Shown here piece after piece: positions 18,049-36,857 of a stretch of DNA of 64,000 bases. Source of the DNA: Escherichia phage C6. The position numbers and the translations under genes were made by a program. The stretch lies in sequence record MW679410.1; one strand, written 5' to 3'. Below the pieces are notes generated by a model. The model worked only from the letters and a program-made list of their open reading frames with translations, had not been told where the DNA came from and searched no databases. The first letter of the stretch is position 1. Every line of letters starts with the position of its first letter.

Positions 18049-18068
18049 CATCAATAAGAGGACACCCT

Positions 18069-18821: not shown

Positions 18822-19987
18822 GTTCAAAAACTATGCAACGTGAAGGCTTTCCTAATATCAGTATACGCCTTTACGAAGATTATGACGCCTGGTTAGAGCA
18901 TCGTTTTGTTGAACTAGGCGCTACATTTACTACTCTAACAATGCGAGATGGACTTTACGGTAGTAATGAAGGGTTGCTCCAGTTTTATGATGCAAAGAAC
19001 CTTCATACTAAAATGGATGGCGAACAGATTATTCAAATTTCTGTTAAGAATGCTAACTCCGAGCGTACCCAATCAAGAATTTATGGAAGTAAACACTTTG
19101 CTGTAGGAGTGGATTCGAAGGGCGACAATATCATAACAATACAACTCGCCCCAATCCACTTTTTAGAAAATCTTAAATTCGGGCGTATGTTCTTCCCTAG
19201 TGTCCAAGAAACATTAACTGAAATGATTGGTGTTATTTACCAAGACCGTCCACTTCTTGCACCTCCATTGAACGGGATAAACGTTTATGTTCCTAATGTT
19301 CCTTGGTGTGATTCAATGGACCGTTATATGGAATTTGTACGAGAAGTAGGTATGGCCGTTGAATCTGATAAATTTGTATTTGTCTGGGAAGATATAGATG
19401 GTATTTCTATCATGGACTACGAATTTATGGTTAATCAAGAGCCAATTAATTTTGTGGTAGGTGAGCCTCGTTTAATAGGCCAATACGTCCAAGATATGGA
19501 CACTCCTATCGCATTTGATTTTGAATGGTTAACTAAAGCCAACCAGCATTCCAGAAAACCATATGAAAACGCTACTGTATACGCACACTCTTTCTTAGAC
19601 AAAAACGCCACACGAATTACTTTTGGTGATGGGCAAAACAGTATATTGGTTTCTCGCTCTGGTGGATATTCTGATTATACCTACCGAAATGGATTTGAAG
19701 AAGCCGATAGATTAGTTACTATGGCCCAATACGATGGCTATGCTCATTGTAAGGTATACGGTAACTTTGAACTAACTCCAGGCGATAAGATTAATTTCTA
19801 TGACCCTAAAAACCAATTCCAATACGATTTTTATGTAGACGAAGTTATTCATGAAGTGAGTAACAATACATCAATTACAAACCTTTATATGTTTACTAAT
19901 GGTAAGCCTATTAAGATTGAAGAACCACCGAAGGTTAAAAATGAACTTAAAACTGATACTCCCGATCAAGAAAATAACGCTGGGTGA
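18818..19987 (+). CDS. 27: Baseplate hub subunit gp27
   Basis: 389 aa; ...[46 protein letters not shown]... matches T4 gp27. Confidence 0.93.
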
Positions 19988-20468
19988 CAAAGAGATTTCT
20001 ATTCCTAAATTGGGCCTTAAACACCAGAAATTGGTTAAAGATGAAAAGGACCCTTACAAGGCTCTTCACATATTAATGAATTCCATTTATAAAGGTTTAT
20101 CTGCGGCAGAGACCGATTTTGCAGCTCTTCATCTTTTAGAATTTAATGGAAGATTAAAAAGTAAAGTAACCAAAGACGGATTTACTTATAACTTAAATGA
20201 CCTTTATATCTGCCAGCGACTTGAATTCCAATTCCAAGGTAAAACATTTAAATTTAAATCACACGAACCATTTCAAACATTTGGTCCTGTTGATAGTGTA
20301 TTACAATCTCTTTACCTTGGTGATGATGTACCAGATTTTCTGGATATGCCTGCCTTTGTTGCTACATGGGCCGACGATATAACTTCTACCATAGCTATCC
20401 CTGGTCCTAATGGTCCTATCAAAGGATTGCTTAAAATCATGGATATCTTAAATGAAGAACGAATCTAA
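19941..20468 (+). CDS. 28: Baseplate distal hub subunit gp28
   Basis: Start moved to the Met at 19941 ([23 protein letters not shown] upstream), about 175 aa as in T4 gp28; overlaps the end of gene 27 in another frame. Confidence 0.85.
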
Positions 20469-22188
20469 TCAGAATAGTTTTCGTCGCAATAAACTGATTG
20501 AAGAAATGGCTCCTCAGCGTCGTGCTGAGGCGCTAGCCCAAACTCAGAACGACGAATTAGGAAATATATCAGATGTTTTATCCGATTCCCAGGCGGCGTC
20601 TGAATTGCTCTCTGAAGTGGTTGAGACAAAGTCCAATCAGATTATTAGTTCTGTAGACCGAGTAGATAAAAGCGTCCAAGACGTTGTCGCTGGAACAGAA
20701 TTAACAGCCGAAGCTATATCAGAACAAACCCAACAGTCTAAAGCTCTTTCGGATGCATTAAACGAAAAGATTAATAAGCTTTCTAATATGTTGGAGGCTA
20801 AATTTTCTGGTATTTCTATTCCACCGGAAGGGAGCTCATTAAAGGTTATTGAAGACTCTATTCCTGAAGAACCTAAGGCCGAAACTCCTAAAGTTCCTGC
20901 CGTTATTGAAGATATTCTCCCTCCGGAAGACAATAAACCTGACGCTGAATTTGTGCCTGAGCCTCCTAAAAATTCAGATGAAGGTAAAGAAGGTGATAAG
21001 TCTTCTCTTTCTGATAAAATTGAAGCCCTTACTAAAATAACTGAAAAGGGATTTAAAGCTTCTGTAAGTGTCGCTGATAGAATTTCAGGCATGCTTTTTA
21101 AGTATACCATTACTGCCGCCGCTGAAGCTGCTAAACTCGCCGCAGGTTTAGTCCTTTTAATATTTGGTATAGATGCCATTCGTGTATACTTCCAATATTT
21201 CATGGACCAATTTGAGTCAGGGTGGAAAGAATTTAACGATAAGTTTAAAGAGTGGGGCCCGTTACTTGAAGGGCTAATGACATGGGCCAAGAATGCCGAG
21301 GCTATGTTTAGTGAAGGGAACTGGTTAGGCCTGGCCGAAGCTATTATTCGCGGTATGGTTAATCTTACTAAAAATATGGCACAGCTTTTAATGCTCGGTA
21401 TTTCTAAGTTGATTTCGGCTATTTTAAGTAAAATACCTGGTATGGGTGATTTGGCTGAAAACGTAGAGGCTTCCGCTTTAATGTCGTATCAACAAAATAC
21501 TGGAGCCACTTTAGATGACGAAGACCAAACTAAAGTAGCCAAGTACCATGATAGACGTTCTGCTGAGGCTTTAGAAACAGCCGAGAAAATGAATAAGAAG
21601 TATAAGGATAAACCCGAGCTTATAAACCAGGCAGAGAAATACGGTAATCTTACTAAAGAACAAGCCGACCAATTACGCGCAGGTGGAATTGACACAAGCT
21701 TCCGTGACCTCCCTGAAGAAGAACGTTTAGATTATTTCAAGAAACGTGATAAAGCCCAAGCTGATATTATTCGTTTGACCCAAACTGCCGATAATATAAT
21801 GAAGCCTGATTCTAAAGATATCGAAAACGCTAAAGCATATAAAGCTGATATCGAGAAACAATTGGCTGACCCTATTATGGCTAAAGGTGGTGCACCGAAG
21901 GACCTTAATATCCAGCAATTACTTGATAAGATGAATAAATCTTTAGAGAAATTTAACGAAGCTGAAAAGCCTAAACCTGCTTCTGTAGCTGAATCCCCTG
22001 AAAATACCCAGGTTAAAAAGGTTGATGAGCAAATGAGAGCAAAGGAAAATGCTAAATATAGTCAGCAGGCTCCAACACAAATAAATCAGCAAACGAATAT
22101 CAAGAAAACGAGTAAGACTAGTTATAATTTACCTCCACAGTCCTCTACTCCGGCTCCTGGTATGCGTCAAGCTACTAAAGTTAATTAG
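20452..22188 (+). CDS. 29: Baseplate hub subunit and tail-length determinant gp29
   Basis: 578 aa; N-terminal SFRRNK motif and position after 28; similar size to T4 gp29. Confidence 0.88.
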   Translation: MKNESNQNSFRRNKLIEEMAPQRRAEALAQTQNDELGNISDVLSDSQAASELLSEVVETKSNQIISSVDRVDKSVQDVVAGTELTAEAISEQTQQSKALSDALNEKINKLSNMLEAKFSGISIPPEGSSLKVIEDSIPEEPKAETPKVPAVIEDILPPEDNKPDAEFVPEPPKNSDEGKEGDKSSLSDKIEALTKITEKGFKASVSVADRISGMLFKYTITAAAEAAKLAAGLVLLIFGIDAIRVYFQYFMDQFESGWKEFNDKFKEWGPLLEGLMTWAKNAEAMFSEGNWLGLAEAIIRGMVNLTKNMAQLLMLGISKLISAILSKIPGMGDLAENVEASALMSYQQNTGATLDDEDQTKVAKYHDRRSAEALETAEKMNKKYKDKPELINQAEKYGNLTKEQADQLRAGGIDTSFRDLPEEERLDYFKKRDKAQADIIRLTQTADNIMKPDSKDIENAKAYKADIEKQLADPIMAKGGAPKDLNIQQLLDKMNKSLEKFNEAEKPKPASVAESPENTQVKKVDEQMRAKENAKYSQQAPTQINQQTNIKKTSKTSYNLPPQSSTPAPGMRQATKVN

Positions 22189-22196
22189 GATTAATA

Positions 22197-23285
22197 ATGA
22201 AAGCAAAAGAACTTGACTTTGATGTAGCCTCCTTGTTTAAAGGAGGTTCAAAGACCTCCGCCGGGCAGTCTAAAGCTAAACCGGCTCAAACTACGGTAAC
22301 GGCCCAATACCCGGCAGAAAGGGCCTCTGGCAATGACACCTCTACAGATATGGTGTTAAGCGATTTATATAAAAACGGCTTACTTTTTACAGCGTATAAT
22401 TTTAGCTCTCGTGTATCACCTGATTTGCGTAATGACCGATCAAGTCAAATGACTAAAAAGTTTTCAAAAGCCTCTAGTAAACTTACCGGTAATACCGGAG
22501 GATTCAGCGCGGTTAAAAACTTGTTCAGTAATAACTCTAAAGGAGTTAAATTTGACAACCAAGCTTTGGCAAATATTTTACTCCCACGTTCTAAATCTGA
22601 CGTAGATTCGGTATCGCATAAATTTAATGATGTCGGTGAATCATTAATTACTAAAGGTGGTGGTACTGCTACAGGTATTTTAAGTAACATTGCAAGTACT
22701 GCTGTATTTGGTGCATTGGAATCTGTAACTAACGGCGTAATGGCTGATTCAGGTGAACAGATATACACCACTGCCCGTAGTATGTACGCCGGCCCAGATA
22801 ACCGTACTAAGGTATTCACTTGGGAAATGACTCCACGAAACGCTCAAGACCTTATCCAGATTATTAAAATATACGAAATCTTTAATTACTATTCTTATGG
22901 TGAAACCGGCAACTCAGCCTTCGCTGGTGAATTAAAAGAGAAGATTGATACCTGGTATCGTTCTACGTTTAAAAAAGAAGCTATTGACAAGTTTGACGGT
23001 AAGCTATTAGGGGAAAGTATTACAAGCTTCCTTTCTAATGTTATTGTGGTAAGTAACCCGACCATTTGGTATATCCGAAACTTTGGCGATAGCAGTTCAT
23101 ATGATGGTCGTGAAGATATTTTTGGTCCATGCCAAATCCAAAGTATACGATTTGATAAAACCCCTGATGGTCATTTTAACGGATTGGCTATTGCTCCTAA
23201 CTTACCATCTACATTTAGTTTAGAAGTTACTTTCCGTGAAATCATTACTTTAAACCGTGGCTCACTTTATACGGAAGGATTCTAA
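22197..23285 (+). CDS. 48: Baseplate tail-tube cap gp48
   Basis: 362 aa; position and size match T4 gp48; EKTSAGQS-like N-terminal motif. Confidence 0.85.
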   Translation: MKAKELDFDVASLFKGGSKTSAGQSKAKPAQTTVTAQYPAERASGNDTSTDMVLSDLYKNGLLFTAYNFSSRVSPDLRNDRSSQMTKKFSKASSKLTGNTGGFSAVKNLFSNNSKGVKFDNQALANILLPRSKSDVDSVSHKFNDVGESLITKGGGTATGILSNIASTAVFGALESVTNGVMADSGEQIYTTARSMYAGPDNRTKVFTWEMTPRNAQDLIQIIKIYEIFNYYSYGETGNSAFAGELKEKIDTWYRSTFKKEAIDKFDGKLLGESITSFLSNVIVVSNPTIWYIRNFGDSSSYDGREDIFGPCQIQSIRFDKTPDGHFNGLAIAPNLPSTFSLEVTFREIITLNRGSLYTEGF

Positions 23286-24238
23286 TGTATACTTTACAAG
23301 AATTTCAGAATCAGGCAATTAATATTGACCTACAAAGGAATAACCTGTTTAGTGTAGTATTTGCTACAGTTCCTTCTTCTAAATCTCAAGCGCTCCTCGA
23401 CCAGTTCGGTGGAGCTTTATTTAACAATATCCCATTGAATACCGATTTGTTTGGTATTACACAAGGAGAGTTGACCCAAGGTGTTACGACATTAGTGACA
23501 GCGGGCACTCAGAAGTTGATTCGTAAGTCAGGTATAAGTAAATATCTGATTGGAGCTATGTCATCCAGGGTTGTGCAGAGCTTACTAGGAGAGTTTGAAG
23601 TAGGTACATATCTGATGGATTTTTTCAATATGGCTTATCCTACGGCAGGTCTTTTAGTCCACGCCGTTAAAATCCCGGATAATACTTTGAACTATGAAAT
23701 GGATTTGAACCACAACTCGCCTAATATCAAAATTACCGGAAGAGAATATTCTCCTCTGGTATTAAGCTTCCGTATGGATTCTGAAGCTGCCAACTACCGT
23801 GCTTTTAATGACTGGGTCAATAGTGTTCAAGACCCAATTACACAATTAAGAGCATTACCTGAGGATGTTGAAGCTGACATTCAAGTCAACCTTCATTCTC
23901 GTAATGGATTACCCCATACAGTAGTAATGCTTAATGGGTGTGTTCCTGTTAGTGTTTCGTCACCGGAATTATCCTACGACGGTGATAACCAAATTGCTTC
24001 GTTTGATGTTACATTTGCTTATAGAAGTGTGCAGACGGGTGCAGTCGGTAAACAGGCGGCTTATGAATGGCTGGAAGATAAAGTCCTTAAAGGAGTGGCG
24101 GGCATAAGTGAGAGTAATTCACTGAGTTCTTCAGTAGCTAAATTAAGCCGACTTTCAGGAGCTTCTAGTGGATTAACAGGATTGGTTAATACATTTGGTG
24201 GGCGTGCTATTAATAGTGGAATATCGAGGTTGCTATAA
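23285..24238 (+). CDS. 54: Baseplate tail-tube initiator gp54
   Basis: 317 aa; ATGA overlap with gene 48; position and size match T4 gp54. Confidence 0.85.
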   Translation: MYTLQEFQNQAINIDLQRNNLFSVVFATVPSSKSQALLDQFGGALFNNIPLNTDLFGITQGELTQGVTTLVTAGTQKLIRKSGISKYLIGAMSSRVVQSLLGEFEVGTYLMDFFNMAYPTAGLLVHAVKIPDNTLNYEMDLNHNSPNIKITGREYSPLVLSFRMDSEAANYRAFNDWVNSVQDPITQLRALPEDVEADIQVNLHSRNGLPHTVVMLNGCVPVSVSSPELSYDGDNQIASFDVTFAYRSVQTGAVGKQAAYEWLEDKVLKGVAGISESNSLSSSVAKLSRLSGASSGLTGLVNTFGGRAINSGISRLL

Positions 24239-24244
24239 CAAAAA

Positions 24245-24268
24245 AGGAGAGCGTACGCTCTCCTTTAG
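24245..24268. terminator. Bidirectional terminator after gene 54
   Basis: GGAGAGCG-TA-CGCTCTCC perfect palindrome flanked by an A-run and a T-run. Confidence 0.75.
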
Positions 24269-24271
24269 GGG

Positions 24272-24562
24272 TTATTTACGGAACGAAATGAAACCTGCTG
24301 TGGTCATTAGCGGTTGCTTTTTAACAAACACCGTAACTGAAATAGGAGCTTCAGATTCGAGTTGTCCTGTCACTACACCGTTAAAAATGTTTTCGGTTTG
24401 TTCTGGATGAGAAAAATTCTCAACAGGTCGGATATCAAACTGTTTGTCTTCACCGAAAACTCGACGTAATTCATTACCCACTGCACTGTCAAACTCTTCA
24501 GAAGCAGGGATAACGTTTTCAACTACCAGTTCTTGACCATTAAAACGGAATGCAGATTTCAT
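24272..24562 (-). CDS. Hypothetical early protein, 96 aa (alt.-3 position)
   Basis: ORF with GAGGAG RBS and an early-type promoter at 24591-24620; between gene 54 terminator and the alt array. Confidence 0.6.
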   Translation of the reverse strand: MKSAFRFNGQELVVENVIPASEEFDSAVGNELRRVFGEDKQFDIRPVENFSHPEQTENIFNGVVTGQLESEAPISVTVFVKKQPLMTTAGFISFRK

Positions 24563-24590
24563 AATGTTCTCCTCATGTTTGTGTAAGGTA

Positions 24591-24620
24591 ATAGTACCAC
24601 ATCCTTGTGGTGTTGTAAAC
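24591..24620 (-). promoter_or_regulatory. Early-type promoter for the 96-aa ORF
   Basis: Minus strand GTTTACA, 18-nt spacer containing the inverted repeat CCACAAGGATGTGG, TACTAT; leader ...CATGAGGAGAACATTATG. Confidence 0.55.
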
Positions 24621-26743
24621 TACATTTTGAATTTATTTGGCAGAGCAGAGATATCCAAAGATGCAGCAAGGATTTCCATAGCTTCGTTGCTTTCAGAAAC
24701 GGATTCATTAACCAAGAATTGACTGAATCCATGCATCAGGCGAACTTCACCAGTTTCCATCAAATGGTCGCCATCGTAAACAGATTCGCTGAGCTCTGAA
24801 GGAGGTGTTACTGTAGCTTCCATAAGATATTTGTGAGATACCCTATCATTCATAGCAAAAGCCGCTACTTTATCAACCTTCAACAATAATCCACGCGGAA
24901 GGATAATTTCTGCTTCTTCGGCATATTCTGTAAGGTCACCAGGAGCGATAACTTTAACTGCTTCAGCACCTCGAATAACCATACCAATTTCAGCAATTCT
25001 ATCCGCAGGACCTTCAGGTGCAATTGGATTACCAAACTCGTCTTCTTCCCATTCTACCTCTTCGTCATCGACTTCACCCACATCAGATGAACTACCACTA
25101 GCCAATTTAAACAACTCATCAGCGGAGGATAAAGAACCTTCACCACCAACAAAAACGGCTTGGTTGTCGAGGGCCATATAATTTTTACCAAATTCACCAA
25201 AGATGTTAGGCTTTAATGAGGCTGACACAAAGTTCTTAAAGTAAAATGTTTTGTTATCGATATTATGACGCAGAATTTTGTATGGCAAATCCTGACCACG
25301 ATACAAAATAGTACCCTTAGGAAGTTTAATACCCTTAGTAAATGCTGAGTCTAAATCCTTAATCAATTTAATAGCCGTTGTATTGTTTTCGGATTCAGGT
25401 TTACCTAAAAGGAACAAGTTCATAGGAGCATATTCAGCTGCGCAATATTCAATAATAGCATTGCTTTCGTCTTTGGTTAGGTCCTTAGGTTTAATGAGCT
25501 CACCTGAATAAGCATATGCATCACTAATAGAATCGTTAATTAGTTTATAAACGGCTTCCATAGCGAAAGCAATTCGAGAGGCCTTTTCTGAAGGGGAGCC
25601 TTTAAAACGGGTACTCAGGTTATTAACAATTTTCTTAATAATATCCAGACTATTGGTTGTATTGATTTGCGAAAGACCGCTTAAAAGTCTATCGACTTCT
25701 GTATTAAAAAATGCCATATTATTAGAGTAAATTTCAAACCCTTGTTTATCTCTATTAGCATAATTTAGTTTAAATTTACTATCAGTCATTAAAGCGTGCG
25801 TGAGAGCAATGGTGTATCTAAAGTTGGCAAGGTCCTCGCTCTTAGATTTAAACTGAGAAGCCTGGCGCATTTTGGTAATAGCACCTTTTTTAAAGTTCTG
25901 ACTAATCTGTTCAATACCTTCATTCTCAGGGCCTTCAGCCGTGTGAACCGGTACAGAAGCTTCAAACTCGTTATAAACCTGCAATTCTTTAGGGGACAAA
26001 GTTTCAGGCTCAGCAGTAGAATACTGCGCGGCTGCTGCCATACGACGCGAAATCTTAGTACGAGTAATGACAGCCTTATCAGTACGTTTTTCTTCAACTT
26101 GTGCAATAGATGCCGCTACGGCTTCGACCTTACTTACGGCCTGGCCGGTTTTCTTAGAAACATACACTTCGCCAACTTTAGACTCAACTTTAGTATAAAG
26201 ATCGGCATTAATTTCAGGCATACCCTTGATATCTTCAATATTAGCCCCGCGACGTACTAAAAGAACGTAGGTATGTTTTCCGCTGAATTGGAACATGTCG
26301 TCAACAACTTTAAACTTACCACCGGTACGGGCCATAGCCAAACGAGCTAATACGCGCTGAACGGTAGGGCCTTTACCTTTCATTTTCTTAGTAGGGAAAC
26401 GGAATAAAACCGCGTCCATTTTAAGTTTGTTTATTTGTTCATATATGGTATCGAAAATGGTGTTCAGTGTACCGAGTGGATCGGTACCCAAACCACCCTT
26501 GAGTTCTGCCGGAGCGCCTTTAGCAGATAAACTCATTAAGATAACATGGACGTACTTATCGCCCGCCTTAACCATCTTAATAGCGTCGCCTTCAGACGCA
26601 TAAGATACCATACGTGCTACTAAATTGTCATTACCAGGAGCATGTACCGCAAAAATCTGCGGTACGCCTGAGCCAGGTTTAAGATTTGTTACTGGGTAAT
26701 TTTTTTTATCACTTTTATCAAAAACTTCGTTTAAATTTTCCAT
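24620..26743 (-). CDS. alt: Alt-type ADP-ribosyltransferase paralog A (third in the array)
   Basis: 707 aa; N-terminal MENLNEVFD (LxE-type motif) and conserved approx 230-aa N-domain shared with the two upstream paralogs; ART-like R/S-x-S/E-x-E elements (LYRGQ, FVSASL, EEAEIILPRG); divergent central module. Confidence 0.85.
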   Translation of the reverse strand: MENLNEVFDKSDKKNYPVTNLKPGSGVPQIFAVHAPGNDNLVARMVSYASEGDAIKMVKAGDKYVHVILMSLSAKGAPAELKGGLGTDPLGTLNTIFDTIYEQINKLKMDAVLFRFPTKKMKGKGPTVQRVLARLAMARTGGKFKVVDDMFQFSGKHTYVLLVRRGANIEDIKGMPEINADLYTKVESKVGEVYVSKKTGQAVSKVEAVAASIAQVEEKRTDKAVITRTKISRRMAAAAQYSTAEPETLSPKELQVYNEFEASVPVHTAEGPENEGIEQISQNFKKGAITKMRQASQFKSKSEDLANFRYTIALTHALMTDSKFKLNYANRDKQGFEIYSNNMAFFNTEVDRLLSGLSQINTTNSLDIIKKIVNNLSTRFKGSPSEKASRIAFAMEAVYKLINDSISDAYAYSGELIKPKDLTKDESNAIIEYCAAEYAPMNLFLLGKPESENNTTAIKLIKDLDSAFTKGIKLPKGTILYRGQDLPYKILRHNIDNKTFYFKNFVSASLKPNIFGEFGKNYMALDNQAVFVGGEGSLSSADELFKLASGSSSDVGEVDDEEVEWEEDEFGNPIAPEGPADRIAEIGMVIRGAEAVKVIAPGDLTEYAEEAEIILPRGLLLKVDKVAAFAMNDRVSHKYLMEATVTPPSELSESVYDGDHLMETGEVRLMHGFSQFLVNESVSESNEAMEILAASLDISALPNKFKM

Positions 26744-26746
26744 TAT

Positions 26747-28792
26747 TTACCCTTGGGTGAATTTTTCTGGGATTTCGTCAAAATTAATACATGAAGCCAA
26801 AAGAGGCATTATATCCACCTTGGTCGATTTGACAAATGAATCAAAAGACACAGGGTTGTCGGTCTCTGTTTCTACGCCTTGGTAAACAACCAATTCGCCG
26901 GTTTCCATCAATGCATCACCATCATAGATAACCGCATTTTCTGCTAGTTGGTCTGTGGTCTGGATATCAGCTTCCAATAATTTGGTGTTGTAGTTTCCTT
27001 TATATGAGGCATCTGTAATTTTAGTAATCTTAACAGTAGTTCCACGTGGAAGAATAACCTCTTGTTCTGTTGGAGAACCTGACAATTCACCGGGCACAAT
27101 TACGTTAATAGAGTCTGCACCGGAAATTTTCCAACCGATGTTCATCATTGTATTTTCGGAACTCGTCAGCATACTTGGAAGAACAATTTCATTATCGCCT
27201 TGGAAAGATGTCCCAACGCGATAGTCCTGATGAACTGCGGCCATTGCGACGTTTGATACCCAGCCGCCAAAGATAATCGGCTTAAGGGACGTTGATACAT
27301 AGTTCCTGAAATAAAACAATTTTGAGTGTTTGATTTTATCAAAAGTGTTAACATTTAAATATTGACCACGCCAAAGTGTAATATCAGGTGGCAATTTATG
27401 GCCAATTTCAAATGCCGCATCCATATCATTAATTACTTCAATTACGCGATAACTATCAATAAATTCTGCATCCTCTTCATAATAATTACCCAACAAATAA
27501 TTATTAACATCGGTATAATATTGGCCGCAATAAGAAGAAATAGCCTCACGCTGCTCATACTCAAATCGATTATCGCTATAACTGGCTGTAAAATGCATAA
27601 CACTTTCTGACGCTTCATTAGCAAAATCGGTAACAGCAGCACTTATACGTTGAGCATACTCTTGTTCCCAAAGCTCTGCCGCATATTCGGCCGCATCCAT
27701 ATTAGGAGGAGCCTCATTCATTTTTCTTTCGATAAATGCAGCTTTGCGAAGGTTAAGAACCTCTGCACATGATTCGGCAAAAATCTGCATCTGCTTCATA
27801 CTGCCGACAGGAGCACGTTTAAGTTCACGATGCATACGGTTAAAAATTGGGTCAGAGTCTTCGACTCGAATTTCTTCTTTCCAAACACCGTTTGCTCGCA
27901 TAGCCATATCTGCCGCGCGCATACGCTCCATAGTATTCGTTTCAGAAGGTTGAATAAAAATTTCTAGTTCTTCATAATCGTCGATAAGTTCCGCTGTTGC
28001 TGGGGCACTAAATTTTGATGCCTCTGCATCAATCTCATTCCAACCTTCCGGAACTTCATCTCGAGGAGAATACTGGGCTGCGGCTACAGCACGCCTAGAA
28101 ATCTTGGTAGTAGTAATAACGGCCTTATCCGTACGTTTTTCTTCGACTGCCGCTATACTAGCAGATAGTGCTTCTATTTTGGTTACCGATTGGCCTGTTT
28201 TCTTGGATACATAAACCTCACCAACTTTAGACTCAACCTTAGTGTAAAGGTCTGCATCAATTTCAGGCATACCTTTTATGTCCTCAATATTAGCTTGTTT
28301 ACGAACCAGTAAAACGTATGTATGTTTGCCTGTAAATTGATACATATCATCGACAACTTTAAACTTGCCGCCAGTACGAGCCATCGCCAAACGTGCCAAT
28401 ACACGTTGAACAGTAGGACCCTTACCTTTCATTTTCTTGGTAGGGAACCGGAAAAGAACTGCATCCATACGAAGAGCTTTAACTTGTTCGTATACAGTAT
28501 CGAAAATGGTGTTCAGTGTACCAAGTGGGTCAGAACCTAACCCGCCTTTCAACTCGGCTGGGGTACCCTTAGCAGACAAACTCATCAAAATAACATGAAC
28601 ATATTTGTCGCCCGGCTTAACCATTTTAATAGCGTCTCCTTGAGACGCATAAGATACCATACGAGCAACCAGATTATCATTACCTGGTGCTTGGATAGAG
28701 AAAATCTGTGGAATACCGGAACCCGGTTTAAGATTTGTTACTGGATAGTTTTTAGCGGAATCACTATCAAAAACCTCATTTAAATTTTCCAT
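26747..28792 (-). CDS. alt: Alt-type ADP-ribosyltransferase paralog B (second in the array)
   Basis: 681 aa; N-terminal 230 aa nearly identical to paralog A; LWRGQ, YVSTSL, EQEVILPRG motifs; unique central module; C-terminus ...PLLASCINFDEIPEKFTQG. Confidence 0.85.
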   Translation of the reverse strand: MENLNEVFDSDSAKNYPVTNLKPGSGIPQIFSIQAPGNDNLVARMVSYASQGDAIKMVKPGDKYVHVILMSLSAKGTPAELKGGLGSDPLGTLNTIFDTVYEQVKALRMDAVLFRFPTKKMKGKGPTVQRVLARLAMARTGGKFKVVDDMYQFTGKHTYVLLVRKQANIEDIKGMPEIDADLYTKVESKVGEVYVSKKTGQSVTKIEALSASIAAVEEKRTDKAVITTTKISRRAVAAAQYSPRDEVPEGWNEIDAEASKFSAPATAELIDDYEELEIFIQPSETNTMERMRAADMAMRANGVWKEEIRVEDSDPIFNRMHRELKRAPVGSMKQMQIFAESCAEVLNLRKAAFIERKMNEAPPNMDAAEYAAELWEQEYAQRISAAVTDFANEASESVMHFTASYSDNRFEYEQREAISSYCGQYYTDVNNYLLGNYYEEDAEFIDSYRVIEVINDMDAAFEIGHKLPPDITLWRGQYLNVNTFDKIKHSKLFYFRNYVSTSLKPIIFGGWVSNVAMAAVHQDYRVGTSFQGDNEIVLPSMLTSSENTMMNIGWKISGADSINVIVPGELSGSPTEQEVILPRGTTVKITKITDASYKGNYNTKLLEADIQTTDQLAENAVIYDGDALMETGELVVYQGVETETDNPVSFDSFVKSTKVDIMPLLASCINFDEIPEKFTQG

Positions 28793-28795
28793 TAT

Positions 28796-30880
28796 TTACC
28801 CTTGGATGAATTTTTCTGGGATGTCATAGAGGTCTATGCATGAAGCCAAAAGAGGCAGTACATCAAACCGTGTAGATTTAACAAATGAATCAAAAGATAC
28901 AGGGCTTTCGGAAGTATCGAAGTCATCTTGATATACGACCAACTCGCCGGTTTCCATTAGTACGTCACCATCATATACCACAGATTCTTGAAGCTCATCT
29001 GTTGTCATAACTTCAGCTTGGATGAGTTTTGTATTACTAGATGTTGTTCCATCATTATTAGAAGCATCTGTTATTTTATTAACTTTGACCATTAATCCAC
29101 GCGGTAGAATAACTTCGGCTTCAGTTGCTATTCCGAGATTTCCTGGATATACTACATTAACTTTATGAGCCCCATCAATAGCCCATCCTATTTGAACTTT
29201 AACGTAATCAGGATTTTCCTTATACGCCCTTATTTCATTAGGGTTAATAGTTATTCCTTCTTCATTTTTATCGACTGTCAATTCATTACGAACTTCCGGT
29301 TCTAAAAGACCGATACCAGCGTGTGTAACACCAAATCGTCCAAAAATGATAGGGGTTAAAGAAGTAGATACAAAATTTCTGAAATAGAACACTTTATTTT
29401 TAACTAGTGCTTCGTATATAGGAGCAGTCATACTCTGTGCACGATAAACTGTAATGCCTTCTGGTATACGGTCACCATTTTCAAAAGCAGAATCCAAATT
29501 ATTAACTGCAGATTCGATATCTTTTTCGCTCATAACCTCATAGTTCTGAGGATTATAACGTCCTAAAAGAAGATTATTTATGTCTGTATATCCTGAACCA
29601 CAATATTCTCTGATGCCGCGCTTTTGTGATGGGGTATATTTAGAGCCCTCACGAGCAATAGTAATATCGACCATAATACCACCACCCACACCAGCAAAAC
29701 TATATACACGTTTTTTAATGAACTTGGTCTTGGCGGCTTTCCACTTCGCATCGGTCAATTCATTCCAGAGGTCGTCAGGTTGGCCTTTACGAGTTTTGTT
29801 ATGCCGGGCCAGCCATTCACCTTTGTATTCTTCGAAAACGGTATTAATAGCAGAGGCATATTTTTCTAGAGCTTTAACAGATGTCAAAGGTTCGTTTTTG
29901 ATGGCCGTAAGAATTTTATCTTTAATTTTCTCTTGGATTTCACCTATACCGTGAAGAGGAAACATTTTATAATCGTAATGCAATTCTTCAGCAGTGCCTT
30001 CAGCCACTATATTAGCAACCTTATTTTTAGCCGCAGGAGAATTGTTATTAGTAACCATTTCCTGAGCCTCAGGGATTAATGGAACTGTTGCTGGTTTATT
30101 AAAATCCGCTGCAGTAGCTTCATATTTCTTAAACAATTCACTTTCATTACGATAAGATTCCAATGATTGGCTTGCTGCAATAGCACGTCGCGAAATCTTA
30201 GTCTTGGTTATAACCATTTTATCAGTGCGACGTTCTTCAACCTTAGCAATACTGCCGGCAATAGCAGTTTCTTTAGTAACCTGCACACCTTCTTTTTTGG
30301 AAATATAAACTTCACCGACATCAGAATCTACCTTAGTGTATAATTCGGAATTAATTCCTGGCATACCTTTGATATCTTCGATATCAGCTTGTTTACGAAC
30401 TACTAAGATGTAAGTATGTTTACCGGTAAATTGGTACATAGCCGGAACTACTTTAAAACGTCCACCAGTTTTCTGTGCTACCAAACGTTGGATAATCCGT
30501 TGGACAATAGGTCCTTGTCCTTTCATTTTCTTGGTAGGAAAACGGAACATCACGGCATCCATACGAAGCTTTTTAACTTGGTCATAAACCACATCAAAAA
30601 TAGTATTAATCGCATCTACGGGAGTAGGGCCAAGGCCACCCTTAAGTTCGGCCGGAGTACCTTTAGCTGAAAGGCTCATAAGGATAACGTGGGCATATTT
30701 ATCACCCATTTTAACTTGTTTAATAGCATCACCTTCAGAAGCGTAGGATACCATACGCGCGACCAATTGGGATTCAACGTCTCCAATTTTCCAAATCTGG
30801 GGTACTTTAAGTTTAGGGTTCAAGTTTACTGTAGGCAGAGTGCCTTCGGACTCAAACACTTCATTTAATTGTTCGGTCAT
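28796..30880 (-). CDS. alt: Alt-type ADP-ribosyltransferase paralog C (first in the array)
   Basis: 694 aa; same architecture (MTEQLNEVFE..., VYRAQS, FVSTSL, EAEVILPRG, C-terminal ...PLLASCIDLYDIPEKFIQG); N-domain more diverged than A/B. Confidence 0.85.
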   Translation of the reverse strand: MTEQLNEVFESEGTLPTVNLNPKLKVPQIWKIGDVESQLVARMVSYASEGDAIKQVKMGDKYAHVILMSLSAKGTPAELKGGLGPTPVDAINTIFDVVYDQVKKLRMDAVMFRFPTKKMKGQGPIVQRIIQRLVAQKTGGRFKVVPAMYQFTGKHTYILVVRKQADIEDIKGMPGINSELYTKVDSDVGEVYISKKEGVQVTKETAIAGSIAKVEERRTDKMVITKTKISRRAIAASQSLESYRNESELFKKYEATAADFNKPATVPLIPEAQEMVTNNNSPAAKNKVANIVAEGTAEELHYDYKMFPLHGIGEIQEKIKDKILTAIKNEPLTSVKALEKYASAINTVFEEYKGEWLARHNKTRKGQPDDLWNELTDAKWKAAKTKFIKKRVYSFAGVGGGIMVDITIAREGSKYTPSQKRGIREYCGSGYTDINNLLLGRYNPQNYEVMSEKDIESAVNNLDSAFENGDRIPEGITVYRAQSMTAPIYEALVKNKVFYFRNFVSTSLTPIIFGRFGVTHAGIGLLEPEVRNELTVDKNEEGITINPNEIRAYKENPDYVKVQIGWAIDGAHKVNVVYPGNLGIATEAEVILPRGLMVKVNKITDASNNDGTTSSNTKLIQAEVMTTDELQESVVYDGDVLMETGELVVYQDDFDTSESPVSFDSFVKSTRFDVLPLLASCIDLYDIPEKFIQG

Positions 30881-30902
30881 AATAATTCCTCTTTAATAAC
30901 CT

Positions 30903-30932
30903 TATTTATGCCAGAAAAGGCCCGAAGGCCTT
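30903..30932 (-). promoter_or_regulatory. Hairpin (AAGGCC-CGAA-GGCCTT) plus variant late-promoter-like box upstream of the alt array
   Basis: Palindromic GC hairpin followed on the minus strand by UUUUCUGG, then cATAAATA (one mismatch to TATAAATA) about 20 nt before the first alt ATG. Confidence 0.4.
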
Positions 30933-31113
30933 AAAGTGGTAGCAACGTACGGTATACTTCAAATTTAGGACCCTTTTCATAGCGGTCGAAATTATCTTTA
31001 AAATCGGCGAACGCGATTTCATTTTCAAATTCAAGGACAATTTGGGACACCGCAGTGGAGACATCGCCACCTTCTTTATATCCAATAACCACGGTTTCTA
31101 AATAAACTTTCAT
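30931..31113 (-). CDS. Hypothetical small protein, 60 aa
   Basis: ORF directly downstream of ligase; start placed at the Met 1 nt after the ligase stop (TAA-T-ATG); the ORF-track start 31155 would overlap ligase by 41 nt; hairpin at 30917-30932 follows. Confidence 0.45.
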   Translation of the reverse strand: MKVYLETVVIGYKEGGDVSTAVSQIVLEFENEIAFADFKDNFDRYEKGPKFEVYRTLLPL

Positions 31114-31114
31114 A

Positions 31115-32638
31115 TTATAACCCAGTTTGAGACCAATCACCGAATACATCTTCAAATGTATCAGCTTCTGTTTTATCGAAACGCCAACCTTTAATAATTG
31201 GAAGGAAAATACCTACGGTATCAGTACGTCCTTTAGAATGAACCCAACCATTACATTCACAGTCGGCAATACGGCCAATCAATTTACCTTCACGAGCTTG
31301 TTTCATAAGAAGTTCACGGTCTAAATCAGGACGGTCTTCCAATGGAATCAATACCTTTTTACCTGATTTATCTTTCTTATGGGTAGTATCTTTAAAGCCT
31401 GAACCACAGTCACTTGTAATTCGACGACAACGTGATACCAACTCGACACCACCTAGTTTGTTAGGGTCCTTCGAGTGTTCATAATAACCTACCACTTCTA
31501 AAGCAATATCAATTACTTCTTTGAACTTGATAAGATTCTTAGAACGGCGGTTTTCCCAGTAGGAGTCCATGTTCTTAAGGATAATACCTTCCAGGCCCTG
31601 GTCGACATATTTCTTATAAACGACTTTAGCTTCTTCAAGATTATTAACCCACTGGTTTTCGATAGCTTCAACACGCGTTGTACCATGCAATACGACATTA
31701 TGAGCAACCATAAGTTCTAAGGCTGTAAAGCGTACATCATACTTATCGCCTTTAATTTTACCTTCGGAATATACGACATCCAATGGGACATAATCCCACG
31801 CCTGTAATACCATACCAGCGGCTTCGGTCGGAGTAATAGTTCCTTGAAGAGCCTTGTTAGCCAAGCCGTTTGACGTGGAACGATCGGCGACAGTTTGGAA
31901 TTCCTTAGCCTTACTTAATTCAGGAAGTTCCTCATCAAACATACTAAACAAATCATTAGATGCTTTAGGTTCTACCTTAGGAGTATGGTAAACTAATTCG
32001 CCGTCAATCATAACACCATTAGGATGGCGTTGTCGAGCTTCTTCGGTCATGGTCATTAATTCAGCAGCCAAAAGATTAAGCCCTTGATATTCGTTACCAC
32101 CACGAGTAAGGAATGTCACACCATCGTTACGAACTTCAGCAAAACAACGAGCGCCATCAGCTTTTAATTGGGCAAACGCAGGCCATTTAATATTTTTCTT
32201 AATCAAAGCTTCATCATAAGAACTAGCCAACATCTGCGGTTGTTCAGGGATTAAACCTTTCCAAACCTTGTTAGCAATAGAAATTGATGCACCACATTCA
32301 AGGTCACGCATCATTACACGACGTAATACCTCGGCATCTTGTCCCTTAGCATCAGCAATGATTTGAGCCAGTTCTTCAATAGCTGCATTACCCGTAATCT
32401 TACGTGTGGCTAATGTGAATTCAGCGAAATCAAGAAGGTCTTCAAGAGTAATCATACCAAAGGATTGAGACGTAAATCCAGGTTCCGGCCACTTTTTAAT
32501 GCCATAGTTCAAACGACGAGTATAAGCCATACGATAAACACGTTTCAGAAGCTCATTGTCCTTTTCACGAGCAATAATAGCTTCTTTAGCTTTAGTAGAA
32601 TCAATAGCAGCAATTTCGTTTAAAATATCTAAAATCAT
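31115..32638 (-). CDS. 30: ATP-dependent DNA ligase gp30
   Basis: 507 aa; MILDILNEIAAIDSTKAKEAIIAREKDNELLKRVY...QLKADGARCFAEV (adenylation KxDG motif)...LEGIILKN matches T4 DNA ligase. Confidence 0.95.
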   Translation of the reverse strand: MILDILNEIAAIDSTKAKEAIIAREKDNELLKRVYRMAYTRRLNYGIKKWPEPGFTSQSFGMITLEDLLDFAEFTLATRKITGNAAIEELAQIIADAKGQDAEVLRRVMMRDLECGASISIANKVWKGLIPEQPQMLASSYDEALIKKNIKWPAFAQLKADGARCFAEVRNDGVTFLTRGGNEYQGLNLLAAELMTMTEEARQRHPNGVMIDGELVYHTPKVEPKASNDLFSMFDEELPELSKAKEFQTVADRSTSNGLANKALQGTITPTEAAGMVLQAWDYVPLDVVYSEGKIKGDKYDVRFTALELMVAHNVVLHGTTRVEAIENQWVNNLEEAKVVYKKYVDQGLEGIILKNMDSYWENRRSKNLIKFKEVIDIALEVVGYYEHSKDPNKLGGVELVSRCRRITSDCGSGFKDTTHKKDKSGKKVLIPLEDRPDLDRELLMKQAREGKLIGRIADCECNGWVHSKGRTDTVGIFLPIIKGWRFDKTEADTFEDVFGDWSQTGL

Positions 32639-32898
32639 TTTACCGTCCTTACAGTTTGGGTACTTCTATTATAAGCCACTTCATCTAAAAGCTCATTTAA
32701 AGTTTTGTGATACGATATAATACGCTTATCTTTAATATCATATTCAGTAACATACATAAATCCACGCCGAACACATTGGATAAAGATATCTTCATCTTTG
32801 GCTTGGAAATATACAGGGTTCAATCGAAGGAATTGTCTAACGTTTCCATAATCATGGGATTTAGGGGTCCCATCAGTAATAGTATGAACTACAAACAT
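32635..32898 (-). CDS. Hypothetical early protein (30.1 position)
   Basis: ORF upstream of ligase; start placed at the Met at 32898 (TAA-T-ATG after the preceding gene); ORF-track start 32931 is the alternative. Confidence 0.5.
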   Translation of the reverse strand: MFVVHTITDGTPKSHDYGNVRQFLRLNPVYFQAKDEDIFIQCVRRGFMYVTEYDIKDKRIISYHKTLNELLDEVAYNRSTQTVRTVK

Positions 32899-32899
32899 A

Positions 32900-33538
32900 T
32901 TAACCTCGAGCAATCCATTCAACTGCGGCATTATTACGAAGGGATTCGATTGCTGCGATATCGTCCCATGAATTAACCTTTACGGCCAAATTAGGTTTAA
33001 AGTCGCGTTCACCACGAGCTAACCAATAAACTTGGATATCCATGAGAACATTAGATGCTGCATCGCAATGATGAGCCAAATCATCAACATAAAACTTAAT
33101 ACGTTTACCGTACGTATTTTTAGCTCTTATGAAGAGGTCTTCTTTTGATTCTGAATGACCGCACATCAGAATCTCCTTGAATGCGCCAGGGAACAAAGCA
33201 TTCAAATTGAATTGTCTATTCAGCAGGGCATCAATTGAGTCGCCTAGCGCAGTCACGGCTACAAAATCGAAGTCTTTTTTGAGCTTGTTGATATGTTTTA
33301 GTGCGTCCATGTAAGGAGACAGATAACGAATAAAATCTGACTGATTATATTTCTCGATTAAACGAGCGCCCAATTCATTATCACAATTAAACAGCTCGCC
33401 TGGAGATAAGAACCGTTCGTCCTGAATCATATTCAAAATATGTTCTAAAGGCAAATTATATTTCTGTGCGAAATAAGGCAAGCCGGACTGCCAACTTAAA
33501 CATACTCCATCGATATCTGTTAAGATAACTGGTTTCAT
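32900..33538 (-). CDS. HAD-superfamily hydrolase, putative phosphatase or nucleotidase
   Basis: 212 aa; N-terminal VILTDIDGV (HAD motif I DxDG) and a DD pair near the C-terminal third. Confidence 0.7.
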   Translation of the reverse strand: MKPVILTDIDGVCLSWQSGLPYFAQKYNLPLEHILNMIQDERFLSPGELFNCDNELGARLIEKYNQSDFIRYLSPYMDALKHINKLKKDFDFVAVTALGDSIDALLNRQFNLNALFPGAFKEILMCGHSESKEDLFIRAKNTYGKRIKFYVDDLAHHCDAASNVLMDIQVYWLARGERDFKPNLAVKVNSWDDIAAIESLRNNAAVEWIARG

Positions 33539-34002
33539 AATAAATCTCTCAATTTGTTTAGGATGTCGATAAACTCTTTTTCAGTTAGTATTGTATCACA
33601 TTCTGTAAGGTGGCTTGCCATCGAATGCTTTAAAACTTTACCTTTTGTGGATTGTAACGCATCGCGGAATCCTTTGTTCTGGAGCGCTGCTTCAAAATAC
33701 GCACTTTCGTAAAGCTCTTTCCACGCTTCGGAATATCTTGAAAACGGAGTTCCAAGCCAGAACAACGTGCCACGGTCCTGAGCTCTAGCATAAGCTCGAC
33801 CAGCTTTTTGCGCGTCTAACCCGGACATCCCAAATATACGTCTTTGCTGTTCAACATTTTTCACCTTACATCCTTGGAGGAATCCTTCGAGTCCACCAAA
33901 TTGGATACCATCCATAACGAAAGGCCATTTAGCAAAGTTACTTAATGCACATGATGGCCATGGGAAGTTGCTTCTAATTTCTAATTCAGACATCTTTGAC
34001 AC
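33535..34002 (-). CDS. NADAR/YbiA-like domain protein
   Basis: 155 aa; LSNFAKWPFVMDGIQFGGLEGFLQGCK parallels the E. coli YbiA core FSNFAAWPIKVDGKTWPTSEHYFQAQK (recalled from memory). Confidence 0.7.
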   Translation of the reverse strand: MSKMSELEIRSNFPWPSCALSNFAKWPFVMDGIQFGGLEGFLQGCKVKNVEQQRRIFGMSGLDAQKAGRAYARAQDRGTLFWLGTPFSRYSEAWKELYESAYFEAALQNKGFRDALQSTKGKVLKHSMASHLTECDTILTEKEFIDILNKLRDLL

Positions 34003-34198
34003 TTATAATTTCAACATCAGCCCAATGACCATAACCAGGTAGACGGTCTTTAATAGATAATCCACCGTCAAATTTCAGCATTTTAATTGTTTTAGTATAT
34101 GGTTCAATATTTCGGGCCCATGGACTCACGTCTGTCACACGATAAGTAACTTCGACCATTTCTGTGCCCAAAATTTTCTGAATCAGTTTCTTAAACAT
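33986..34198 (-). CDS. Hypothetical early protein, 70 aa
   Basis: Tightly packed ORF in the 30.x cluster; no recognisable motif. Confidence 0.5.
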   Translation of the reverse strand: MFKKLIQKILGTEMVEVTYRVTDVSPWARNIEPYTKTIKMLKFDGGLSIKDRLPGYGHWADVEIISVKDV

Positions 34199-34199
34199 A

Positions 34200-34394
34200 T
34201 TATCCTCGCTTTAAACATTTAATTACAGACAGTTCACCACCCATGCGAACATCTTCAGTTCCATCGACCCATAGGACGGTGTAGGCTTCTTTAATAGTAA
34301 CATTACCTAATTTAAAAGCAGGTAGAACCTTTGAAATCATTCCAGGAATACCTATACCCTTTAATTGGACCGTTTGCGATAAGAATAGTTGCAT
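34200..34394 (-). CDS. Hypothetical early protein, 64 aa
   Basis: Tightly packed ORF; no recognisable motif. Confidence 0.45.
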   Translation of the reverse strand: MQLFLSQTVQLKGIGIPGMISKVLPAFKLGNVTIKEAYTVLWVDGTEDVRMGGELSVIKCLKRG

Positions 34395-34714
34395 TAGAAC
34401 CTCATCTGAAAGCCGTGTGATTTAACATTACCACCATAGATGTCAGACGTATTGACTTCACGTGCAACACTCGGGTCGATATTGATATCACGGTTGAGCT
34501 TAGTGATTGCTAGGGTATCACGACCATTAACAGTACGGAATTCTACCGGGCATACAACATCAGCGTAAGCCTTAATAGATTCACGAGTAGGTTGTTTGTC
34601 GGCAGGAACATCTTTACTTGCTTTAGAGAAAACAACTTCACAGAAATTTTTACGAGTGTCGAAATAAGTGGTCATAAACATAATATTTTCCTCAAAGGAG
34701 GCCGAAGCCTCCAT
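34394..34714 (-). CDS. Hypothetical early protein, about 106 aa
   Basis: ORF with ATGA overlap onto the downstream gene; start uncertain (internal Met candidates). Confidence 0.5.
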   Translation of the reverse strand: MEASASFEENIMFMTTYFDTRKNFCEVVFSKASKDVPADKQPTRESIKAYADVVCPVEFRTVNGRDTLAITKLNRDINIDPSVAREVNTSDIYGGNVKSHGFQMRF

Positions 34715-34722
34715 TTTTAAGA

Positions 34723-35088
34723 TTAGATATCGAATTCGTTCAGAACTACATCAAAGATTGCTTCCAGGTGTTCAGGTTTAGCTCTGTTGCTCAGGATGTG
34801 TCGAATCCAAGTTTTAACCAGAAGCTTACGATTAACACCGTTCCAGCAAGGATGGGTACCTAAATCACGTTGACGGAAATCATCATCTAAAGCGATTTTA
34901 AAAGTAGAACCTTCCATTGTGATTGAAACCGTAATACCATTTTCAAAGCGCATATAAACGTAGTTAGGAGTCATGCACTGCTCGATTTCGCACACCGTGC
35001 CGTTGTTGTGTTTCCACAGGCAAATAACTTCAGAAGAACCAGCGATACCGTTAGAAACATATTTACGTTCGAAGTTGATGTAGTTCAT
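34723..35088 (-). CDS. Hypothetical early protein, 121 aa
   Basis: ORF preceded by an early-promoter cassette at 35130-35158 and the leader ...GGAGAATAAAATG. Confidence 0.6.
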   Translation of the reverse strand: MNYINFERKYVSNGIAGSSEVICLWKHNNGTVCEIEQCMTPNYVYMRFENGITVSITMEGSTFKIALDDDFRQRDLGTHPCWNGVNRKLLVKTWIRHILSNRAKPEHLEAIFDVVLNEFDI

Positions 35089-35118
35089 TTTATTCTCCAG
35101 TTTGTTTTCGTATTATTT

Positions 35119-35158
35119 GGTACAGGTCTATAATAACACAACCTGTACCAAAGTAAAC
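35119..35158 (-). promoter_or_regulatory. Early promoter cassette with stem-loop over the -10 box (PeSL-like)
   Basis: Minus strand GTTTAC, 17-nt spacer, TATTAT; inverted repeat GGTACAGG...CCTGTACC brackets the -10; leader ...GGAGAATAAAATG. Confidence 0.55.
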
Positions 35159-35162
35159 TGTT

Positions 35163-35531
35163 TTATGCAACTTTAATCCAATTATCTAAATTTAATTCAC
35201 CTTTGGCTTTCATTTTTTCAATCAAATCGTCAGCAGTAGTGCGACCATTTTGATACCATGTAACATCTTCAGAATAACCAGTTTCTTCATCTTCATAGGT
35301 CTTACAACGAATCTTACCGATTATGATGGTTTTCAGTTCGTAGGTATCACCGGTAAAAAAGTTTGTTACCATAATTTTCCAAGAGAAGTCATCAGAAGGA
35401 CCTTCCGGAGTCATGCAACCTACAAATTCAAATTGTTCTTTGTACAAGCGCCATTGCATTTCTTTAGTTTCGATTGCTTTGTAACCGTCGTGGTCTTTAC
35501 ATTTGATATATGAGTTAAGATTGATTTTCAT
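35163..35531 (-). CDS. Hypothetical early protein, 122 aa
   Basis: ORF preceded by a near-duplicate of the same promoter/leader cassette (35540-35601). Confidence 0.6.
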   Translation of the reverse strand: MKINLNSYIKCKDHDGYKAIETKEMQWRLYKEQFEFVGCMTPEGPSDDFSWKIMVTNFFTGDTYELKTIIIGKIRCKTYEDEETGYSEDVTWYQNGRTTADDLIEKMKAKGELNLDNWIKVA

Positions 35532-35539
35532 TTTATTCT

Positions 35540-35601
35540 CCAGTTTGTTTTCGTATTATTTGGTACATGTCTATAGTATCATGCCTACTAGAGATGTACA
35601 T
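35540..35601 (-). promoter_or_regulatory. Second copy of the promoter/leader cassette (degenerate -35)
   Basis: Near-duplicate of 35090-35160 (TTTTATTCTCCAGTTTGTTTTCGTATTATTTGGTACA.GTCTATA); -10 TACTAT, -35 region ATGTAC. Confidence 0.4.
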
Positions 35602-35643
35602 ACTTTTTTGCAAATAAAACGAAAAAAGGAACCCGAAGGTTCC

Positions 35644-36000
35644 TTACTTAATGATGATACGAGGATTAAGCTCTGCCGTGTAGTAATTTACAGCCTTAGT
35701 AACTATAGCTTCACCTTTAGGATTTGCCAGAACCCATTCACGGGCTCGTTTGTGAGCTTCTAATTCAGTCAATAATCCGGACCTTTGACACCCTCTGTCT
35801 TGGGTACCTGCTTCTGTTAAAAAAGCAACTAGGTAGATCGCGTTTTCATAAGGCGTGGCGGGCGGTACGTATACAGGCGGGCTTGGCGGGTTATATGCCG
35901 CGGGATGATGTGCCGGAATTCCATCATACGGCCCTGTACCTGGCACCGCGTAAGAGGCGCCGCGAGGAGAAGTAAATGTATGATTATATCTATCGTTCAT
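35644..36000 (-). CDS. Hypothetical proline-rich protein, 118 aa
   Basis: ORF with a Pro-rich N-terminal half (PAAYNPPSPPVYVPPATP); follows the terminator-like hairpin at 36019-36036. Confidence 0.5.
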   Translation of the reverse strand: MNDRYNHTFTSPRGASYAVPGTGPYDGIPAHHPAAYNPPSPPVYVPPATPYENAIYLVAFLTEAGTQDRGCQRSGLLTELEAHKRAREWVLANPKGEAIVTKAVNYYTAELNPRIIIK

Positions 36001-36010
36001 AATATTTCCT

Positions 36011-36036
36011 ACAAAAATGGGACTCCGAAGAGTCCC
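36011..36036 (-). terminator. Terminator after the 53-aa ORF
   Basis: GGGACTC-TTCG-GAGTCCC hairpin followed on the minus strand by AUUUUUG. Confidence 0.6.
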
Positions 36037-36041
36037 ATAAC

Positions 36042-36203
36042 TTATGCCTGAGGCTTACCAAAGCAAGCAGCATCTGCACGCAATACCGCACGAGCACGAG
36101 CTTGAAGCTTATCAACTACCTGATCGATACGCTTGTTGGACGCACGCTTGTAACCAGCGCGTTTAGAGGTACCGTCAACTACTTTAACTTCTTTCTTAGC
36201 CAT
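36042..36203 (-). CDS. Hypothetical small basic protein, 53 aa, not in the ORF track
   Basis: Manual translation MAKKEVKVVDGTSKRAGYKRASNKRIDQVVDKLQARARAVLRADAACFGKPQA; followed by a GC hairpin with UUCG loop and a U-run. Confidence 0.45.
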   Translation of the reverse strand: MAKKEVKVVDGTSKRAGYKRASNKRIDQVVDKLQARARAVLRADAACFGKPQA

Positions 36204-36470
36204 TTTAAATCTCTTAAATTAGAATGCAGGACTTATTGGCGTTGCCTGCGCAAGCCCTCAAGGGGAACATAGGTTTCGGATATTTAACGACAGGATAACC
36301 ATAAACCTCGTCATCATACCAACCACGGCTTAGACAGATAACCTTTTTCTGACGCGTGATAGTACAAAATACATTCAAGAGGTACACCGTAAAATTGTCG
36401 GGGCGGTACTTCTAAAACATACCGATTCGTAAATCGATAATCAGACAATTCGACGGCTCCTCGATTTAAC

Positions 36471-36719
36471 TTACTTCAGGGTAATAATAAAATGACGTAC
36501 TGCTTTACGAGCTGCTGAAGCCAAAGGCTTAGCAAATTTCAGTTCATCTTTAGCTTCCAGTTCAGCAGCCAGAGTAGCCTGAGCCGGATTCAGATGTTTG
36601 AAATAACGCAGGATTTCCAGTGCTTCGGCTTCAACATCAATAGATGCGCCGTAGTTTTCGTGACCGTTGTTCCAAGCGTTGCGTTGCAGTTCAAGAGCGT
36701 GATTCAGTTGTTTGTTCAT
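36471..36719 (-). CDS. rIII: rIII lysis-inhibition accessory protein
   Basis: 82 aa; MNKQLNHALELQRNAWNNGHENYGASIDVEAEALEILRYF... matches T4 rIII in sequence and length (from memory); adjacent to gene 31. Confidence 0.85.
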   Translation of the reverse strand: MNKQLNHALELQRNAWNNGHENYGASIDVEAEALEILRYFKHLNPAQATLAAELEAKDELKFAKPLASAARKAVRHFIITLK

Positions 36720-36857
36720 TTTAGTTTCTCAATTCGAGATAAAGATTGGCGAGCACGTTCGTCTCAGTATTTCCAGCTGAGTTGTATCTCGCCGTATGGA
36801 AGAGGCTAACCCCATACACCAACCGAAGTTCTGTATGACATCAACCTCTTCGTAATT

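Follow-up and report, generated by a model that had tools for sequence, protein, structure and literature searches.

The closest described relatives of the locus studied here are the alt genes of T4-type phages. T4 Alt is cleaved at ITE-6 and LTE-619 (PMC5694885), and alt duplications have been in print since 2006 (PMC1524935; PMC4177764). In T4 the second alt is reduced to two small ORFs, alt.-1 and alt.-2, which the T4 record annotates as an old alt duplication, the decayed remnant of a second copy. In about 400 other Tequatrovirus records (T2, RB18 and others), however, the second alt is full-length. Two-copy arrays are the norm among T-even phages, and the model phage T4, having lost its second alt, is the exception. 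Three copies were found in no Tequatrovirus examined. Three-gene arrays are already known from several deposited and annotated genomes, labeled alt_1/alt_2/alt_3 in fDHCT2 and elsewhere annotated three times as "Alt-like RNA polymerase ADP-ribosyltransferase".

Here we describe the alt locus within a window of 64,000 nucleotides from Escherichia phage C6 (MW679410.1). It is very probably the alt locus of a Dhakavirus (a JS98-like T4-type coliphage) in a three-gene state with cargo types A1-C-B, an old and dynamic array of four-part Alt-family ADP-ribosyltransferases that would be expressed late and packaged in the head. In the Dhakaviruses fDHCT2, QL01, MX01, AnYang, KIT01 and UGJNEcP3/4, the three alt genes match those of the window in order and in modules; nucleotide identity across the entire locus is 94-97%, and the only differences are point differences. 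By this resemblance the window is another isolate of the three-alt Dhakavirus group. An initial annotation of the array had implied that it was novel and that T4 carries a single alt. The novelty is refuted, since the records of close relatives (fDHCT2, QL01, MX01, AnYang and UGJNEcP3/4) already annotate this array, modules included; the statement on T4 is half true, given the alt.-1/alt.-2 remnant in T4 and the intact second copy in most other Tequatroviruses.

Organization and transcription of the locus

Three consecutive minus-strand ORFs encode Alt-type proteins (Table 1), in agreement with the initial annotation. The array is flanked by gene 54/alt.-3 on one side and by alt.1/gene 30 (DNA ligase) on the other, a position syntenic with the annotated loci of T4, IME08, JS98, QL01, RB18, SP18 and Bp7. 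The gene corresponding to our alt.-3 homolog carries that label in the IME08, SP18 and Bp7 records. For the alt.1 homolog, the true start is probably internal, because the family profile covers residues 15-74. Both inter-copy junctions read GGG-TAA-ATA-ATG-GAA-AAT, with the TAA-ATA-ATG core noted earlier; the RB18 alt/alt2 junction is TAA-ATC-ATG.

Upstream of copy 1, the hairpin GGCCTTCGGGCC with its T run is followed by the late-promoter-like motif CATAAATA and an AAGAGG Shine-Dalgarno sequence. T4 alt has the same hairpin and then, at the position equivalent to CATAAATA, a perfect TATAAATA, from which CATAAATA departs at its first position alone (C for T). The exact motif TATAAATA does not occur within 18049-36858. 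Between 24000 and 31400, with one mismatch allowed, CATAAATA is the sole intergenic late-promoter-like motif of this strand. Because the spacers are only 3 nt long and this motif lies upstream of copy 1, co-transcription of the three copies, which had been suggested before, is plausible. Upstream of copy 3, within the 3' end of copy 2, there is a strong sigma70-like site, TTGTCA-16-TATAAT (11/12), and therefore copy 3 could have its own transcript.

Table 1. Features of the alt locus and its surroundings, in window coordinates
Feature	Coordinates	Strand	Details
gp21 prohead core protease homolog	6626-7261	plus	Pfam Peptidase_S77, E 6e-103; expected to cleave the three Alt proteins at L-x-E
Terminator	24266-24243	minus	after alt.-3 homolog
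alt.-3 homolog	24272-24562	minus	96 aa, conserved downstream flank; phrog_1739, E 1.5e-42
alt copy 3	24620-26743	minus	707 aa; AltB of JS98/IME08, cargo type B (ORF map)
Acidic insertion, copy 3	25004-25192	minus	~aa 518-580, between S-x-S strand and ARTT/E-x-E loop; gaps in other copies
N-domain, copy 3	26039-26743	minus	equivalent of copy 1 aa 1-235
Spacer ATA, identical	26744-26746	minus	3 nt, copy 2 to copy 3
alt copy 2	26747-28792	minus	681 aa; extra copy, cargo type C (ORF map)
Copy 2 segment absent from IME08	27073-28063	minus	central module and ART core; blastn breakpoints
N-domain, copy 2	28088-28792	minus	equivalent of copy 1 aa 1-235
Spacer ATA	28793-28795	minus	3 nt, copy 1 stop to copy 2 ATG
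alt copy 1	28796-30880	minus	694 aa; AltA of JS98/IME08, cargo type A1 (ORF map)
N-domain, copy 1	30176-30880	minus	aa 1-235
Late-promoter-like CATAAATA	30910-30903	minus	22 nt (30881-30902) upstream of copy 1 ATG
Hairpin GGCCTTCGGGCC	30930-30919	minus	then a T run and CATAAATA
alt.1 homolog	30931-31155	minus	conserved upstream flank; phrog_1976, E 7e-31; alt.1 in relatives
Catalytic residues, copy 1			R480, S505, E587/E589
Catalytic residues, copy 2			R475, S500, E576/E578
Catalytic residues, copy 3			R482, S507 (S-A-S), E610/E612
Predicted gp21 sites, copy 1			LNE5-7 and LQE630-632
Predicted gp21 sites, copy 2			LNE4-6 and LAE616-618
Predicted gp21 sites, copy 3			LNE4-6 and LSE651-653

An intact catalytic core in all three copies

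All three proteins match Pfam PF03496 (ADPrib_exo_Tox) above the gathering score, with E values of 5e-36, 7e-21 and 2.5e-17 for copies 1, 2 and 3. When the copies are aligned with T4 Alt, ModA and ModB, the catalytic R, S and two E show no variation and are missing from no paralog; they are also invariant across 74 homologs. The motifs are as first described: YRAQ, WRGQ and YRGQ; VSTS, VSTS and VSAS; and EAE, EQE and EAE, then (V/I)ILPRG, in copies 1, 2 and 3, respectively. Each gene appears to encode an arginine-specific mono-ADP-ribosyltransferase of the Alt family. Around this core the ART domains are only 33-42% identical between copies, and the ARTT-loop region that precedes the E-x-E varies among them in both sequence and length. 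The acidic insertion of copy 3 is predicted to be disordered (pLDDT <50 at residues 518-539, 547-566 and 573-580).

A shared N-domain and conserved predicted cleavage sites

The shared N-terminal region of about 230 aa proposed earlier corresponds to an N-domain (aa 1-235) that is 67-87% identical among the copies and 41-46% identical to those of T4, RB18 and P0002; for T4 and RB18 the identity, taken along the entire domain, is 42-46%. A profile search matches it to positions 1-237 of phrog_802 (E 3e-120), and PF26846 (precomputed) is present on all homologs. At the DNA level the N-domain-coding regions form direct repeats D1/D2 with 65-80% identity. Their synonymous sites are saturated, with pN of 0.09-0.25 (for copies 2 and 3, pN 0.09 versus pS 0.69), and AF2 models show an identical alpha/beta secondary structure in the copy 2 and copy 3 N-domains. 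In our alignment with the Alt copies, ModA and ModB lack any N-domain.

The three proteins begin with MTEQLNEVF, MENLNEVF and MENLNEVF, respectively. Reading the LNE as an L-x-E protease site, as in the initial annotation, fits the T4 Alt cut at ITE-6; each copy has homologous counterparts of both L-x-E sites of T4 Alt, N- and C-terminal, and among 74 family members the glutamates E6 and E653 are invariant. The most likely role of the N-domain is incorporation into the scaffolding core and head, followed by co-ejection with the DNA. As a weaker side reading, it may have a GNAT-like fold and might be more than a packaging handle. A literature search returned no paper on virion proteomics of the Dhakavirus alt paralogs.

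Cargo types and domain-level mosaicism

The cargo regions are as divergent as had been reported, the central segments sharing 22-26% identity in pairwise comparisons. The claim of mutual non-alignment stands for copy 3 and fails for copies 1 and 2. With copy-2-type sequences taken out of the target, hhalign finds the centers of copies 1 and 2 to be homologous (99.2%, E 1e-19, 156 columns), although the two match weakly when compared directly (21% identity, E 0.003). The copy 3 module has no sequence homology to the T4 type detectable by hhalign (probability 2%), its model has low confidence (pLDDT 45-65 at residues ~290-350) and its role is the least certain of the three.

Comparison with other phages assigns each copy to its own cargo type. 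Copy 1 is 97% identical to IME08 altA and, compared along its entire length, 47% identical to T4 Alt; against RB18 alt, identity falls from 94% in the ART to 66% in the central module and 46% in the N-domain. For copy 2, the central module and ART are 82% and 77% identical to P0002 and 83% and 77% identical to SP18 altb, with 80% nucleotide identity to SP18 altb over window positions 26865-28079. Fifty phage records contain the copy 2 central module: in 11 of them it is at least 93% identical, and about 33 are of Gaprivervirus type at 73-83%. Copy 3 is 96% identical to IME08 altB, its ART is 61% identical to RB18 alt2, and its central module occurs in 445 records, including 402 Tequatrovirus records at about 45%. 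These matches identify copies 1 and 3 as AltA (the RB18-alt type) and AltB, respectively, and assign the cargo of copy 2 to the Gaprivervirus type (SP18 altb/VR7). Trees give the same picture of mosaicism: N-domains cluster by phage genus, whereas central and ART cargo cluster by type across genera. It is the cargo, central module plus ART, that sets the type of each paralog; most likely it also determines the range of targets, and distinct substrates for the three copies are plausible.

The same cargo pool recurs at this locus in other arrangements. T4 Alt shares with the window copies its locus, four-part protein design, catalytic residues and the L-x-E motifs of its two gp21 sites, but its cargo, type A2, differs from that of copy 1 (central 34%, ART 65%). 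In T2 and RB18 the Alt and Alt2 pair is full-length, RB18 alt having the cargo type of copy 1 and RB18 alt2 that of copy 3. Bp7 (alt-alt') retains copy 1 and lacks copy 2, with the T4-type cargo A2 replacing B in the second slot. JS98, JS10 and IME08 (altA-altB) retain copies 1 and 3 and lack copy 2. WG01, LQ5 and ABTNLS3 have a three-gene array of order D-A1-B, in contrast to A1-C-B in the window, and Gaprivervirus SP18 (alta-altb) has a D-C array; type D (631 aa, with a short C-terminal tail) is absent from the window.

The two-copy relatives bear recombination footprints. In blastn against IME08, window positions 24001-27072 and 28064-31400 align at ~90.5-91% and the segment between them is unaligned. 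The N-domain of altB in the JS98 group is chimeric, with a copy-2-like 5' end: IME08 altB is 98% identical to copy 2 over nt 1-180 and matches copy 3 thereafter. Likewise, WG01 altB is 93-100% identical to copy 2 over nt 1-300 and then 95-100% identical to copy 3. Such chimeras indicate copy loss through recombination. Because synonymous sites in the copy 2 and copy 3 N-domains are saturated, the three-copy state would be older than the two-slot arrays of IME08 and WG01 altB, and parsimony favors the direction from three copies to two. Purifying selection on every one of the copies is strong (dN/dS of 0.03-0.17 against orthologs). Judged by dN/dS all three are functional, and each is probably active as an enzyme.

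A model for the array and its alternatives

Based on these data, we propose that each protein would comprise an N-terminal propeptide of 6-7 residues ending in L-x-E; a lineage-specific N-domain of ~230 aa; a cargo in which an all-helical central module is joined to a C3/VIP2-type ART (R / S-x-S / E-x-E); and a 54-63-aa C-terminal propeptide beyond the second L-x-E. The three genes would be read as one late transcript from CATAAATA, with translation coupled over the 3-nt spacers. The products would be incorporated in the prohead, trimmed at both ends by gp21 and injected to ADP-ribosylate host proteins, which for the T4-type enzyme include RNA polymerase alpha. The conserved N-domain and C-terminal end would act as homology blocks across which cargo cassettes swap between genera, and copies would be gained or lost. 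Tentatively, and at somewhat less than even confidence, we go further and read the T4-type alt locus as a cassette system in which the lineage-specific N-domain and the C-terminal end are both delivery part and DNA homology block. Through this block, ancient cargoes of no fewer than five types (A1, A2, B, C and D) would be traded between Tequatro-, Dhaka- and Gapriverviruses and stacked, one to three per array, and each phage would inject a set of ADP-ribosyltransferases of its own, possibly matched to host defenses. In most T-even phages the injected set probably comprises two or three different enzymes. The domain-level mosaicism offers a concrete, testable framework for cargo types and for the N-domain as a possible portable head-delivery module.

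It is possible, if rather doubtful, that the variable cargoes are primarily injected anti-defense effectors, each directed at one host immunity protein, with the take-over of transcription secondary. A conserved delivery part with exchangeable cargo, present or absent among close relatives, is consistent with this, and resembles the variable T-even internal proteins, which Rao and Black described as diverse defense proteins with only a capsid targeting sequence (CTS) in common (PMC3012670). However, according to the T4 record notes, the best-studied member acts on housekeeping proteins, RNA polymerase among them. Sequence cannot separate this explanation from the main model above, and both may hold together.

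Simple dosage, with three equivalent copies boosting the same RNA polymerase-modifying activity per virion, is improbable. All copies do have identical catalytic residues and an arginine-type E-x-E, and T4 Alt is already described with many targets (T4 record note), but the cargo is only 22-42% identical between copies whereas cross-genus orthologs of each type are much closer (94%, 77-82% and 61%). The low dN/dS of every copy, the differing ARTT-loop region with its ~60-aa acidic insert in copy 3, and the related phages for which one or two copies of differing type suffice also argue against redundancy. Least probable of all, we believe, is that only copy 1 is a virion protein and that copies 2 and 3 are separately expressed enzymes acting inside the cell, like ModA and ModB, or are decaying like T4 alt.-1/alt.-2. 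The sigma70-like promoter within copy 2 points at copy 3, and the second slot can decay, as it did in T4. Yet copies 2 and 3 have intact ORFs with the same low dN/dS against orthologs, keep both L-x-E sites and retain under strong purifying selection a whole N-domain that ModA and ModB are missing.

Outside the phages, the ART fold of the copies corresponds to that of C3, Vis and VIP2. The C3-like and binary toxins (Vis, C3bot, VIP2, iota Ia and CDTa) have this fold and R / S-T-S / E-x-E in common with the window copies. These toxins are bacterial secreted proteins, only ~15-20% identical to the copies, and lack the Alt N-domain, such a helical central module and prohead-protease sites. We rejected membership among the binary-toxin enzymatic components (VIP2/iota Ia/CDTa), as the tandem ART-fold pair with an inactive N-terminal adaptor was not found in the copies. 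A polymorphic-toxin cassette was likewise rejected: no cargo has an immunity-like gene beside it, only 3-nt spacers and the flanks alt.1 and alt.-3. The conserved N-terminal delivery part and swappable C-terminal effector of polymorphic toxins resemble the Alt design by analogy only.

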